Shown one piece after another: positions 494-44,579 of a DNA stretch of 64,000 nt; the stretch's first letter is position 1, and every line of letters begins with the position of its first letter. The notes below the pieces were generated by a model. It did not search any database and was not told the DNA's origin. It saw only the letters and a program-made list of their open reading frames with translations. The stretch covers positions 256,001-320,000 of the forward strand of contig JACPJW010000001.1 in assembly GCA_016187335.1 (NCBI GenBank), in the 5' to 3' direction. The DNA comes from Candidatus Aenigmatarchaeota archaeon (lineage in GTDB: Archaea; Aenigmatarchaeota; Aenigmatarchaeia; GW2011-AR5). The translations under genes were made by a program, and so were the position numbers.

Positions 494-575
494 TTTTCCG
501 CCAGCGCTTTATCTCATAATATTTTTCTTTCCGTGCACGCTTTTTTTGATGAAACTTTTTTCTAAAAAGTTTCAA
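494..575. repeat. Intergenic composite copy of the hairpin repeat family (TTTTCCGCCAGCGCTTT plus ATAATATTTT...CCGT..ACGCTTTT plus AAACTTTT/AAAAGTTT hairpin)
   Basis: Shares motifs with 632-677, 765-806, 3501-3547, 3595-3611, 4747-4796 and 43374-43419. Confidence 0.75.
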
Positions 576-2617: not shown

Positions 2618-3466
2618 TCAGACCACACTCCCAAGCCATTTTAGCACCGCTGCGCTTAATTCCTTTTCCCTGCCTTCAAAGCTGTGGTTGGCGCCTTTGA
2701 TTATTTCCCATGCAAATTTTCCGGACCTGGTCTTGCCGGCAAGTATTTCCATATAAGTTTTAACGGGCTTTACTGCGTACTCTTCCTTTGAGCCGAAGAC
2801 GGCAAGCATCGGTATCTTGATTTTGGAAAATATTTTCAGGCCGGAGTCGTAATTGAACAGCTGTGCTTCCGTGTTTTCAGGGTCTGCAAAACTCAGGAAC
2901 CGCTTGGGTGCGAAGCCCCAGAATTCTTTCAAAAGAACTTCTTTACCAGTCATCTTTTTTGCCTTTTTTACAATCTTATCGAAACCCTTTCCTGCCTGCT
3001 TTCTTGCTATGTTGTAATCATCGGCAGGCGCAAGAAGAACCAGTGCCTTCACATTCTTGTCCTTGGTTTTGTATTGATAGAAAGTTATCTTCTGGCATCC
3101 CGTGCTGTGCCCCATTAAGATGATATTTTCATATCCAAGATCTTGCACAGCCTTGACCGAGCCCTTTATGTCGTGTATGCAGTCTTCAAACCTTTCCTTT
3201 GCCGTGCCGAAATACAGGCTTTTTTTGCTGCCTTTTTTGTCAAAACGAAAAACTACTCCCAGTCCCCGGTTACTGGGTAGAAAAAGGTCAAAATTATTTT
3301 TCTTTATTTCATTTACCATGTCTTCGGTTATTGACCATGCAAAGAAACTGTCTGTCATCCCGAATACGTTTATGATTACATTCTTCGTTTTCCTGCCTGA
3401 TTTGAACAGCAAACCCGACAATGCAAGACCGTCCGACGCGTAAAACTTCACGAGTTCTGCTTTCAT
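2618..3466 (-). CDS. Alpha/beta hydrolase (DUF1749-like)
   Basis: GHSTGCQK nucleophile elbow and GANHSF His motif. Start moved to MKAELV (3466) because the longer ORF overlaps tRNA-Ser. Confidence 0.8.
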   Translation of the reverse strand: MKAELVKFYASDGLALSGLLFKSGRKTKNVIINVFGMTDSFFAWSITEDMVNEIKKNNFDLFLPSNRGLGVVFRFDKKGSKKSLYFGTAKERFEDCIHDIKGSVKAVQDLGYENIILMGHSTGCQKITFYQYKTKDKNVKALVLLAPADDYNIARKQAGKGFDKIVKKAKKMTGKEVLLKEFWGFAPKRFLSFADPENTEAQLFNYDSGLKIFSKIKIPMLAVFGSKEEYAVKPVKTYMEILAGKTRSGKFAWEIIKGANHSFEGREKELSAAVLKWLGSVV

Positions 3467-3469
3467 GAG

Positions 3470-3670
3470 CGCTGGGAGAGGGAATTTCCCGACCCTTTCC
3501 ATAATATTTTCTTTTCCGTCGACGCTTTTCTTTCCAAAAGAAAAGGGTCGCTTTGAACCCTCGCGGGCTTTCGCCCACAGGATGTTTACAAGCCTTTCCG
3601 CCAGCGCTTTTCACGTTAGCAAAAAGGGCTGTAGCAATCCTGCGCCGTAACCAGGCTTGGCTATCCCAGC
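3470..3670 (-). tRNA. tRNA-Ser(GCT) with two introns (3584-3631 at 37/38; 3484-3551 at 59/60 in the T-loop)
   Basis: Spliced sequence GCTGGGATAGCCAAGCCTGGTTACGGCGCAGGATTGCTAATCCTGTGGGCGAAAGCCCGCGAGGGTTCAAATCCCTCTCCCAGCG has the acceptor stem, long variable arm and G73. Anticodon at 3635-3633. BHB-like junctions. Confidence 0.9.
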
Positions 3671-4746: not shown

Positions 4747-4796
4747 GAACTTTTCAGAAAAGTTCAATCAAAACGGTAGAACTTCTCAGAGTTCTA
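4747..4796. repeat. Intergenic double-hairpin copy of the repeat family
   Basis: GAACTTTTC-A-GAAAAGTTC-AATCAAAA matches tRNA-Val intron 1 (GAACTTTTC...GAAAAGTTC-TATCAAAA). Followed by a second palindrome, TAGAACT-TCTCAG-AGTTCTA. Confidence 0.7.
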
Positions 4797-42306: not shown

Positions 42307-43335
42307 ATGATAGAAATCCCAGGCGATTACGGCGAGGGCGGCGGCCAGATAATCAGAACAGCAATAGCGTTATCCGCTGTAACAGGAAAGCCGTGCAGAA
42401 TCAGCAGCATAAGAGCGAAGCGGGCGAAGCCGGGTCTGCAGACGCAGCATCTTGAAGGTGTAAAAGCACTGGCAAAATTATGCGGTGCGGATGTCAAAGG
42501 CGCGCATCTCGGTTCTACTGAACTGGCTTTCAGCCCGCAGAAAATAAAGGGCGGCAACATTTCCATAAGCATTCCTACAGCCGGAAGCACCGGGCTTGTT
42601 CTGCAGGGTTTGATGATAGCCGCAATCCATGCTGACAAAGCCGTTAATATTTCAATCAGCGGGGGCGCGACAAACGGCAAGTGGGCAATGCCGCTGAACT
42701 ACGCAAAGCAAGTCCTGCTGCCGCTGCTTGGAAAAATGGGCTATAAAGCTGAGATTGATGTGGAGCGCTACGGATATTATCCGAAAGGCGGTGCGGTTGT
42801 CTCTGTAGTTATTGAACCGTGTAAGCTTTCGCCGCTGGTGTTGCTGGAAAGGGGGGAAATTGTTTCTGTTAATGGCGTATCCCACGCCTCCAAAGAACTG
42901 ACGAAAAACAACGTGGCGGAACGCCAGCAGAAAGCTGCGCGTGATGTGATTTTCAAGGAACTGAAAATTACAGCCGACGTCAGGTCGCGGTATAATGACA
43001 CGGCATGCCCAGGCTCTGCCATCGATCTGTGGGCAAAATGTGAAAACTCTGTTTTGGGCTCCGATGGATTAGGCGAGCGCGGAAAGCGCGCCGAGGATGT
43101 TGGCAAGGAAGCTGCTGAAAAATTGGTGCAGCAGCTGCGGAGCGGCGCTGCTGTGGATGAGCATGCCGAGGACCAGCTGATACCTTACATGGCTCTGGCG
43201 GCAGAAAGCGGCACAAGCAGCATCAAGGTGCCTGTGCTGACTGAACACACGCAGACAAACATCTGGGTCGTCGAGAAATTTCTGGACGTGAAGTTTGAAA
43301 TGGAAGGAAGCGTGCTTCATTGCAAGAAATTGTAA
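42307..43335 (+). CDS. rtcA: RNA 3'-terminal phosphate cyclase
   Basis: GEGGGQIIRT, PGLQTQH, GYYPKGG and DEHAEDQL (catalytic His). Confidence 0.93.
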   Translation: MIEIPGDYGEGGGQIIRTAIALSAVTGKPCRISSIRAKRAKPGLQTQHLEGVKALAKLCGADVKGAHLGSTELAFSPQKIKGGNISISIPTAGSTGLVLQGLMIAAIHADKAVNISISGGATNGKWAMPLNYAKQVLLPLLGKMGYKAEIDVERYGYYPKGGAVVSVVIEPCKLSPLVLLERGEIVSVNGVSHASKELTKNNVAERQQKAARDVIFKELKITADVRSRYNDTACPGSAIDLWAKCENSVLGSDGLGERGKRAEDVGKEAAEKLVQQLRSGAAVDEHAEDQLIPYMALAAESGTSSIKVPVLTEHTQTNIWVVEKFLDVKFEMEGSVLHCKKL

Positions 43336-43373
43336 AGATGAAGCCATGCGCCAGATTACTTTTTGAATTTCTA

Positions 43374-43419
43374 ATAATATTTTCTTTTCCGTAGAGGCTT
43401 TTCTTTTCAAAAGAAAGGG
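43374..43419. repeat. Intergenic near-copy of the tRNA-Ser T-loop intron core
   Basis: ATAATATTTTCTTTTCCGTAGAGGCTTTTCTTTTCAAAAGAAAGGG versus 3501-3547: three substitutions and one indel. Confidence 0.85.
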
Positions 43420-43422
43420 CTC

Positions 43423-43638
43423 TTAGAACATGAACCTCTTCTGCTTCTTCTTGGACATTTTTATGGTAAGCATATTCTTGTCAAGAAACGCGTCAAGCTT
43501 TTTGTGGTCTATTGTTTCCGGCAGCGTTATGCGCATTATTACCTCGTCGTTGTTCTCTTCCACGTCCACGGGCAGGTCAATAAAATGCCTGAAGTCCTTT
43601 TCCCAGTAGAATATATACTCGTTTTTTTTCCTTGGCAT
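43423..43638 (-). CDS. Short Hsp20/alpha-crystallin-like protein
   Basis: LPVDVEENNDEVIMRITLP...LDAFLDKNMLTIKM; appears internally shortened. Confidence 0.55.
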   Translation of the reverse strand: MPRKKNEYIFYWEKDFRHFIDLPVDVEENNDEVIMRITLPETIDHKKLDAFLDKNMLTIKMSKKKQKRFMF

Positions 43639-43766
43639 CCAGACACCTGATTTCTCTGTTCAAAGTGTATCATATTTGAACTTATACTTAAAATAATTTT
43701 TGCTTTCCTCCTTCTTGGTAAACTTTATATTTCAGACTGTTTGGAATCATGTTTCACTTTGCTGCT

Positions 43767-44579
43767 CTATACGGCTGCGGTGGAATATAATTCCATTTCC
43801 CTTCCTATTAAGTCATGGGCATTTATCGCGTGATAATGTCCGTTCTCCACGATAATAAGGTTGCCCTTTGCCGCTACGACCGTGCCGGATATTTCTTTTC
43901 CGCTGCCGACTGCGAATTTCTTCGGGTGGCTGGGAACCCTGTCAAGGCGGTAATGTTTCCTGAAGTCGTGTATTTCGGGGTATATCATGTGCTGCGCAAA
44001 ATCAGTTTTTTTAAGCCTGCTTATGGCGTTGAACAAGGCAACAGCCGCGTTGTTGGGGTTGCCGAAAATCAGTTCGTGCTTTTTGTCGCCCCATACCCTG
44101 TCGACGACGCCGATGGATTTCATTATTTCGTGTTCCAGTTTTCTTGCAATGAAACCGTCCTTGACAACGCCCACCTTGGCGGCCATGTCCGCTCCCTGCT
44201 CCACCAGCCTTTCAAGAACGCGGAACTCCATGCTTATGCCTACCTTGACCAGGGAATCAAAAGCGGCAAGGTACACAAAATACCTCTCTTCCTTGCAGTC
44301 CTCCCTTCTTTTCAGGTTGATGCACTGCGACCCGTCGCACTGGACGCAGAGAAAGAAGTCGTCGCGCAGCCTGCATTCGTTGCAGTAATATCCCTTTTCG
44401 ATTACGGCGCTGTTGGGGCACTTCACGTGCTTTCCCTTGGCAAAATGGCCTATGCATTTCTTCTCGCCTATCTTCAAAGAAATTCTAGAATCAAATAACC
44501 GCAGCCTTTCAAACCCGTTGCCGTTGTTGAATACCAGGAACGGCTCCCAGTTCTCCCATTTGTATTTTACTGCCTGCAT
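43767..44579 (-). CDS. DUF2797-like Cys-rich protein
   Basis: KCIG...CPN...CNEC...CVQC...C; VYLAAFDSLVKVGIS...RLVEQGAD pattern. Confidence 0.75.
   Translation of the reverse strand: MQAVKYKWENWEPFLVFNNGNGFERLRLFDSRISLKIGEKKCIGHFAKGKHVKCPNSAVIEKGYYCNECRLRDDFFLCVQCDGSQCINLKRREDCKEERYFVYLAAFDSLVKVGISMEFRVLERLVEQGADMAAKVGVVKDGFIARKLEHEIMKSIGVVDRVWGDKKHELIFGNPNNAAVALFNAISRLKKTDFAQHMIYPEIHDFRKHYRLDRVPSHPKKFAVGSGKEISGTVVAAKGNLIIVENGHYHAINAHDLIGREMELYSTAAV

Follow-up and report, generated by a model that had tools for sequence, protein, structure and literature searches.

The window, by which we mean the whole stretch of 64,000 nucleotides analyzed here, belongs to a genome of 1.01 Mb (G000; 47% GC, 91% complete) that is assembled in two contigs (C1 and C2). 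Positions 43374–43425 of its minus strand hold a free-standing A-type hairpin module, counted here together with the stop codon at which it starts (nhmmer, E=3e-15). The site is an 87-nt spacer between two convergent genes: rtcA, which encodes RNA 3'-phosphate cyclase (42307–43335, plus strand; PF01137, E=1.4e-78), and an ORF of 71 aa (43423–43638, minus strand), the stop codon of which abuts the module. The original prediction had placed the sequence between convergent rtcA and Hsp20-like genes. Both the convergence and the rtcA assignment stand, whereas the Hsp20 label finds sub-threshold backing only, the ORF being weakly CS/HSP20-like with 20.6 bits for PF04969 and 19.3 bits for PF00011, both below the cut-off. 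The element is bounded by stop codons on both sides and, not lying within a gene, interrupts no product that its excision would restore, as excision of an intron should. At gathering thresholds, Rfam returned no family in the whole window. An assembly artifact, which had been considered a possible source of the sequence, was ruled out, as two independent contigs, one of 71.6 kb and one of 945 nt from a separate 2017 study, span 43260–43900 with 0 differences. For comparison, we used the genome of a congener sampled from groundwater (G001; labeled Candidatus Aenigmatarchaeota, 56% complete), whose rtcA is 80% identical at the amino acid level. Its orthologue of the 71-aa ORF shows 79% amino acid identity and an identical C terminus (...KKKQKRFMF*).

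Read along the minus strand, the TAA stop codon of the 71-aa ORF (43423–43425, taken from the ORF list) stands directly 5' of the outer stem. The hairpin that follows (43393–43422), as drawn from folds and family covariation, comprises the outer stem AGAG/CUCU, a C-C mismatch and a U-rich 5' arm, which in this copy has one extra C, paired with an A-rich 3' arm. Next come a conserved single-stranded tail, ACGGAAA (43386–43392; consensus RYGGAAA), present in nearly all of 53 aligned copies, and an A-rich extension ending in ATATTAT (43374–43385), which is the tail of the 'TATTA' subfamily and reads on the plus strand as two U4 tracts. The plus strand carries runs of at least four T that start at 43360, 43380, 43385, 43399 and 43404, all but the first within the element. 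On the minus strand, a single such run, at 43412, comes immediately after the stop codon. Scoring of 43386–43423 with R1, a covariance model of the family, gave 52 bits (E=2.8e-9), which places the copy among the A modules. Single-sequence folding energies were no better than those of shuffled sequences (z = +0.33, −0.43, −0.89 and −1.64), so the case for structure rests on covariation; minimum-free-energy folds of the free copy yielded only the local hairpin or a pairing between arm 1 and the A-rich tail.

The module forms the body of tRNA introns

As originally predicted, 43374–43419 matches 3501–3547 at 43 of 47 positions, with 3 substitutions and 1 one-base indel. When up to 3 mismatches are allowed, the window contains the first 19-mer of the spacer sequence three times, compared with 0.01 occurrences expected from shuffles. 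Likewise confirmed was the location of 3501–3547 in a genuine BHB intron, 68 nt long, at position 59/60 of a tRNA-Ser(GCU) gene (3470–3670, minus strand; BHB scan, and ARAGORN after splicing), which carries introns at 37/38 (3584–3631) and 59/60 (3484–3551). The BHB at 59/60 is built from the T-stem GAGGG/CCCUC, a 4-bp helix UUCA/GGAA, the bulges AAG and AUU, and an inner helix h' of 11 bp. Owing to their several introns, the tRNAs of the window all escaped ARAGORN in its default mode; once the T-loop intron had been removed in silico, the program called tRNA-Ser(gct) with a second intron of 48 nt.

Within the 59/60 intron, 3501–3550 (minus strand; nhmmer, E=1e-17) is an A-type module; the third arm that comes after it (GGAAAGGGTCG) closes the BHB by pairing with the 5' arm. 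A second, more diverged A-type module, recognized by pattern and hairpin matches, makes up the 37/38 intron of the same tRNA (3595–3631, minus strand; C2:259595–259631). Beyond this gene, the A module is the body of many BHB introns in the tRNA genes of G000, and nearly all tRNA genes of this genome have long introns, with 2 intronless tRNAs found by ARAGORN. The third arm of the intron copies consists of AAAGGG and a stretch complementary to the outer stem, and its pairing with the 5' arm gives the helix that closes the BHB. Free copies end at TATTA and have no third arm.

The exons of tRNA-Ser(GCU) are identical in G000 and G001. The 59/60 intron of G001 is A-type too, with a different outer stem and without the TATTA tail, and the 37/38 intron is A-type in G000 and of another hairpin type, B, in G001. 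This swap of modules at the same position indicates that introns are replaced in place. Next to tRNA-Ser, an alpha/beta-hydrolase gene (DUF1749/Abhydrolase; 2618–3466, minus strand) starts 3 nt after the tRNA 3' end, with the TATTA tail of the T-loop intron (3501–3510) located 34 nt upstream of its ATG. Where G000 has this hydrolase gene downstream of tRNA-Ser, G001 has another tRNA.

A family of covarying hairpins across the phylum

The match between the two loci, originally seen as a pair, is real, but both belong to a family with about 35 recognizable copies in G000. BLAST and nhmmer detected 8 copies below E=1e-12 and, at the looser limit of E<0.01, 37 distinct sites, and a strict pattern matched 34 times, compared with 0 matches for the reversed-pattern control. 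TATTA-type tails number 18 in this genome, and near-identical copies (93–97%) occur at unrelated loci. In its sense orientation, which corresponds to the minus strand of the window, the A module has an outer stem of 3–4 bp that is variable in sequence but covarying. Inside it lie the conserved C-C mismatch and then an inner stem, CUUU.../...AAAG, with a variable tip; the 3' part is the single-stranded tail RYGGAAA, to which a subfamily called young adds AAAATATTA.

Pairing of the outer stem was assessed on 33 G000 copies chosen by a pattern blind to this stem, so that pairing was no criterion of selection. The 3 nt before CCC were complementary to the 3 nt after GCG in all 33, with 11 different triplets represented, whereas permuted partners paired in a mean of 7.7 and a maximum of 15 of 33. 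Across 53 aligned copies from many genera, 99.2% of cells were paired, both-side changes occupied 110 cells versus 30.4 ± 4.6 in shuffles, and the covariation score was 0.433 versus 0.045–0.079 for slid controls; this alignment was fitted to R1, which favors the structure, and the unbiased triplet test agrees with it. The C-C mismatch was kept in 49 of the 53 copies. The strict pattern is present in 19 of 31 relatives of the order, and R1, which was built from ten copies, has matches in 64 of 151 genomes across the phylum (44 of 96 genera). By sequence comparison, the A module is best described as an ancient modular hairpin family found across the phylum, with 43374–43425 as one free-standing member. 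The conserved C-C mismatch and the GGAAA tail look like the binding site of a putative factor.

Hairpins of two further families, B (~100 copies) and C, share the plan of the A module. The B type, xAACUUUU..AAAAGUUx followed by AUCAAA, occurs in about 90–106 copies in G000, for example at 545–570, 649–672, 774–803 and 4749–4772 of the window. Of these copies, 24 abut stop codons, and there the stop (TGA, TAA or TAG) forms the base of the stem. On C2, B copies lie on the minus strand in 61 cases and on the plus strand in 19, and a tandem array at C2:419554–419639 contains three of them with a 30-nt unit. Another B hairpin with its tail (C2:738992–739045) is situated upstream of tRNA-Met (738831–738991, minus strand) and is flanked by a perfect 16-nt direct repeat of the 5' end of this tRNA (GCCGAAGTGGCTCAGT), which could be a target duplication or a duplication-born intron.

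Composites of three hairpins (A, a second hairpin and a C-type one) that end in AAGAA(A)CATATTA are found at C2:210371–210469 and C2:136812–136901. Their arrangement is conserved between two genera (also G014:C8:203130–203344), and the 52-nt TATTA form looks like such a composite with the inner hairpins deleted. At the start of the window, just downstream of tRNA-Thr, a B-type hairpin is followed by a partial A-type module, namely a 3' half that carries a TATTA tail (513–547, minus strand). The small genome G025 has five identical A-type copies; the two that were read follow tRNA 3' ends as ...CCA-TAA-GAGCCC, so TAA/TAG at the 5' edge of the module also occurs without an ORF. In G027, a relative of the same order, A-type modules interrupt an apparent 16S rRNA (C4:154222–155039), for example directly after the conserved GGATTAGAT, and the A module therefore also builds rRNA introns.

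The copy next to rtcA predates the split of two species

In G001, which represents a different species of the genus, the same convergent gene pair is present and the module occupies the same place, right after the TAA of the small ORF. The element is 84% identical between the two genomes (41/49). The corresponding values are 56.5% for third codon positions of rtcA, 52% for its four-fold sites, 61% for third codon positions of the small ORF and 50%, with gaps, for the remainder of the spacer. A binomial test of the excess identity of the element gives P ~5e-5. Its outer stem reads AGAG/CUCU in G000 and AGAC/GUCU in G001, so that both sides have changed and the pairing is kept. The element is far better conserved than neutral sites. 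The copy arose before the two congeneric species split and did not come from the tRNA-Ser intron by recent transfer. Either purifying selection acts on it, or conversion from other copies has kept it uniform. A CCUCU arm is common to the rtcA-site copy of G000 and the copy at C2:75706, and the conservation between the two species could stem from gene conversion among copies rather than from selection at the site.

The original prediction had proposed a recent copying event between intron and spacer, of which an empty allele downstream of rtcA in a close relative would have been the trace and fixation at both loci across relatives the counterevidence. The event itself is contradicted by the module at the orthologous site of G001, so that this congener shows no empty allele. 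Fixation holds as far as this one congener: more distant genera have other neighbors at both loci and no module at their rtcA loci, which are not informative as empty alleles because the neighbors differ. Nor does the tRNA-Ser intron stand out as a donor. With a similarity of 0.83 to the rtcA-site copy, it ranks only about sixth or seventh, behind a tRNA-Tyr T-loop intron (0.88), two free copies (0.87) and two more (0.85).

Free copies are placed at stop codons

Of 11 free copies of the TATTA type, about 10 have the TAG or TAA of an upstream, co-oriented ORF at the foot of their stem and start at this codon. When ORFs of at least 80 codons were considered, a stop was found at a fixed offset in 16 of 71 A matches (−6 to −3 from CCC) and in 24 of 106 B matches; in the control, 8% of random intergenic positions had such a stop anywhere within 21 nt. 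We also considered whether the abutment reflects mere survival at harmless TA[AG]R sites and rejected this, as stops make up 9.7% of these sites (P ~7e-10). Of the 16 stops next to A modules, 12 are TAG; overall, G000 uses TAA 519 times, TGA 457 times and TAG 242 times. The same arrangement recurs in other genera and in one unrelated metagenome contig, Ga0209541_10393386 (L081:864–912), which has a free, consensus-matching copy directly after a TAG stop.

The proximity to rtcA, an RNA-processing gene, had been suspected to be coincidental, and this was borne out: sibling copies adjoin CarS, an RNase Z-like gene and two genes without a Pfam family, and because these upstream genes are unrelated, the adjacency to rtcA is a coincidence. 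The element belongs with the minus-strand ORF rather than with rtcA. The sibling at C2:11296 abuts the stop of the RNase Z-like metallo-beta-lactamase gene (C2:11344–12267); RNA-end enzymes are thus 2 of the 5 neighbors examined (this gene and rtcA), probably by chance.

Sibling copies turn over between congeners

Three sibling free-copy sites were compared with G001. The site at C2:78218 is empty in G001, with a TAG stop at the same codon; since the empty G001 site has the same TAG, we rejected the notion that the stop codon arrives with the element there. At the rtcA site, too, the ORF ends in the same C terminus in both species. At C2:75706, the A module of G001 is separated from the stop codon by an additional B hairpin. 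At C2:520253, located after carS, the module is retained in G001 with the same stem base and tail and with a different, longer loop. For the C2:11296 locus, no orthologue was found in G001, at 56% completeness of that genome. Presence and absence hence differ between relatives at the sibling site C2:78218, and the rtcA-site copy occurs in both species. Of the original claim that the intron sequence is mobile, one part survives, as the family exists outside tRNA genes and turns over, which is seen at other copies; the recent copying at the rtcA site does not.

Copies are bounded by TA(G/A)... and ...TATTA. Neither a target-site duplication nor terminal inverted repeats were definable, and the flanks of the one empty site do not align. 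A search of G000 for a Y1 transposase (PF01797) yielded no more than a fragment of 16.7 bits (cut-off, 23 bits), which is interrupted by a stop codon, and a search for TnpB (PF07282) gave nothing. Scanning IMG/VR viral contigs with the exact pattern returned 0 matches and hence no sign of a viral carrier.

Candidate roles of the spacer copy

The best explanation overall is that the element is an old, conserved, non-intron member of the A-module family that probably acts as a bidirectional 3'-end terminator hairpin, a reading to which we assign a probability of about 0.55. As a hairpin with the stop codon at its foot, it would mark the 3' end of the mRNA of the 71-aa ORF, and four U4 tracts in the sense of rtcA plus one in the opposite sense would make it a compact bidirectional terminator of the convergent pair, within a family that would spread and turn over like a REP/MITE-type repeat. 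Termination in archaea is signaled by U4 tracts: aCPSF1 needs at least two of them to bind efficiently, and termination becomes stronger as their number grows (PMC8716108). With five T4+ tracts on the plus strand and one on the minus strand, the site has the two or more U4 tracts shortly after a stop that an aCPSF1 terminator requires.

An A or B hairpin lies at the stop codon of only ~3–4% of genes. The hairpin is not the general terminator of the organism, and its frequency would also fit a purely selfish repeat. The U4-C-U4 arm also sits in sense orientation inside tRNA introns, where a strong terminator should be harmful, which counts against the terminator reading. A start codon with a Shine-Dalgarno-like GGTG lies 15 nt past the sibling at C1:15477, a context that suggests read-through within an operon rather than termination. 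Moreover, the terminator reading leaves the conserved C-C mismatch and the GGAAA tail unaccounted for.

Could the conserved tail instead be a promoter? In such a cassette, GGAAAAGAAAATATTA would serve as BRE/TATA and drive the minus strand downstream of it, here producing an RNA antisense to the 3' end of rtcA. The tail is indeed purine-rich, then TATA-like, and conserved in G001; its counterpart in the tRNA-Ser intron precedes the ATG of the next gene by the 34 nt given above, and the G001 intron that lacks a TATTA tail has a tRNA downstream instead. The T-loop intron of tRNA-Ser may carry a promoter. Distances from tail to next start, however, range from 11 to 214 nt rather than showing a fixed spacing of ~25 nt, three copies face convergent genes, and several downstream genes have their own canonical TATA box nearer to the start. 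With distances so variable and three copies facing convergent genes, a promoter role of TATTA is unlikely in general, and we regard it as improbable at this site. The original suggestion that the copy forms a BHB and is spliced from the 3' UTR fared worse. An mRNA intron cut out by the tRNA splicing endonuclease and RtcB is hardly credible here: the BHB scanner, which recovers both tRNA-Ser introns as positive controls, detected no BHB above chance around 43374–43425, and the copy has no third arm complementary to the 5' arm. Relaxed BHB-like candidates are always obtainable, but the sole one that encloses the element has a mismatch and a wobble in its 4-bp helix and flanking helices of 4 bp, does not rise above the background, which is 8 relaxed candidates per 400 nt on one strand and 20 on the other, and has a 3' side at which the G001 spacer is unalignable. 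A recent copy between the tRNA-Ser 59/60 intron and the spacer, which would show directly that the intron is mobile, is very improbable as well. It draws on the 43 of 47 identical positions and on the TATTA tail, which the 59/60 intron has in G000 but not in G001, so that this intron may have been recently overwritten by a free-type copy; against it stand the orthologous spacer copy of G001 and at least five other copies that are as close as the tRNA-Ser intron or closer.

A selfish REP/MITE-like repeat, functionless at this site, persisting because it is harmless and kept similar to other copies by gene conversion, is a possibility that we consider rather unlikely while giving it real weight. 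It would fit the near-identity (93–97%) of copies at unrelated loci, the subfamilies with common outer-stem triplets, often in pairs, and the presence/absence differences and module swaps between congeners. B hairpins nested within A loops, the patchy copy numbers among relatives (0 to 35) and a module at the stop codon of a few percent of genes only point the same way. Such a repeat does not account for the exact, co-oriented abutment to stops, which neutral survival leaves unexplained (P ~7e-10), or for the retention of both the rtcA site and the C2:520253 site across species, and it comes with neither a transposase partner (PF01797, PF07282) nor a definable target-site duplication or terminal inverted repeats. 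More speculatively, and in our judgment unlikely, the modules would be new, tiny mobile elements of DPANN that home to positions after stop codons or tRNA 3' ends and become BHB introns when they gain a third arm in a structured RNA gene, the rtcA copy being an old, domesticated insertion. In that case, the variable outer-stem triplet might guide the element by pairing with its target, loosely like IS200/IS605.

Relation to known systems

The closest functional analogues of the free copies would be bacterial REP elements and MITEs that carry regulatory signals. REP elements are imperfect extragenic palindromes of ~35 nt, present in tens of copies and mobilized by RAYT Y1 transposases. They often lie just after stop codons, act as terminators or mRNA 3' stabilizers, have conserved unpaired bases and fall into subfamilies; we know of no REP elements that form introns. 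Like them, the A module was found to be an extragenic imperfect palindrome in many copies. Unlike them, it is archaeal, has no Y1 transposase above the Pfam cut-off in G000, and carries a GGAAA tail and a C-C mismatch without REP counterpart. MITEs, such as the Correia elements of Neisseria, are short, non-autonomous repeats that can supply terminators or promoters to their neighbors. Presence/absence differences between relatives are common to both, whereas the A module is smaller (~50 nt), is strictly placed at stop codons and has no definable terminal inverted repeats or duplication. Integron attC sites are imperfect hairpins with conserved unpaired bases and variable tips, which follow a stop and are co-oriented with the ORF. 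An attC-like reading was rejected, as the RYYYAAC/GTTRRRY (R'/R'') core is missing; A copies are, moreover, scattered among housekeeping genes and in tRNA introns rather than arranged in cassette arrays. Inspection showed no box motifs, which disposed of readings as C/D box, H/ACA or K-turn. To our knowledge, known archaeal terminators need no hairpin and are not repeated as one sequence family. The aCPSF1 terminators of archaea resemble the element in having U4 clusters after the stop and on both strands of a convergent spacer (PMC8716108); the aCPSF1 model does not explain the mismatch and the tail of the element.

The closest published parallels are intron transposition in Thermoproteales (PMC4090602) and the intron-rich tRNAs of ARMAN-2 (PMC3239211). 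Thermoproteales tRNA introns were gained after speciation, putatively by a DNA-level mechanism (Fujishima et al. 2010, as summarized in PMC4090602), and the similarity of these introns is the sole published lead known on archaeal tRNA intron gain at new positions (PMC4090602). Compared with these transposed introns, the unit described here is a defined hairpin plus tail, of which BHB-free copies are also found at stop codons, away from RNA genes; Thermoproteales are Crenarchaeota, whereas the present module extends across a DPANN phylum. In ARMAN-2, which has an epsilon2 EndA, introns interrupt most tRNAs, at many positions that include the T-loop (PMC3239211). It shares with G000 a tiny, DPANN-type genome and intron-rich tRNAs, and differs in belonging to another phylum and in that its description mentions no repeat family or free copies (PMC3239211). 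Our search of the literature on tRNA introns of Aenigmarchaeota or Micrarchaeota found no description of such a module.

Implications

In this lineage, the repeated unit is precisely definable, occurs both in introns and free at gene ends, and comes and goes between congeners. Unlike introns, the free copies border protein genes at clean junctions, can be compared with empty sites of relatives and lend themselves to a simple reporter test. The copy at the rtcA site indicates that free copies can be old and constrained, which suggests that, at the 3' ends of genes, they are not debris but have a function for the host or at least a role that it tolerates, and the C-C mismatch together with the GGAAA tail predicts a specific binding factor. 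If the homing of modules to stop codons and tRNA 3' ends were true, they would constitute a concrete, testable route of archaeal intron gain.
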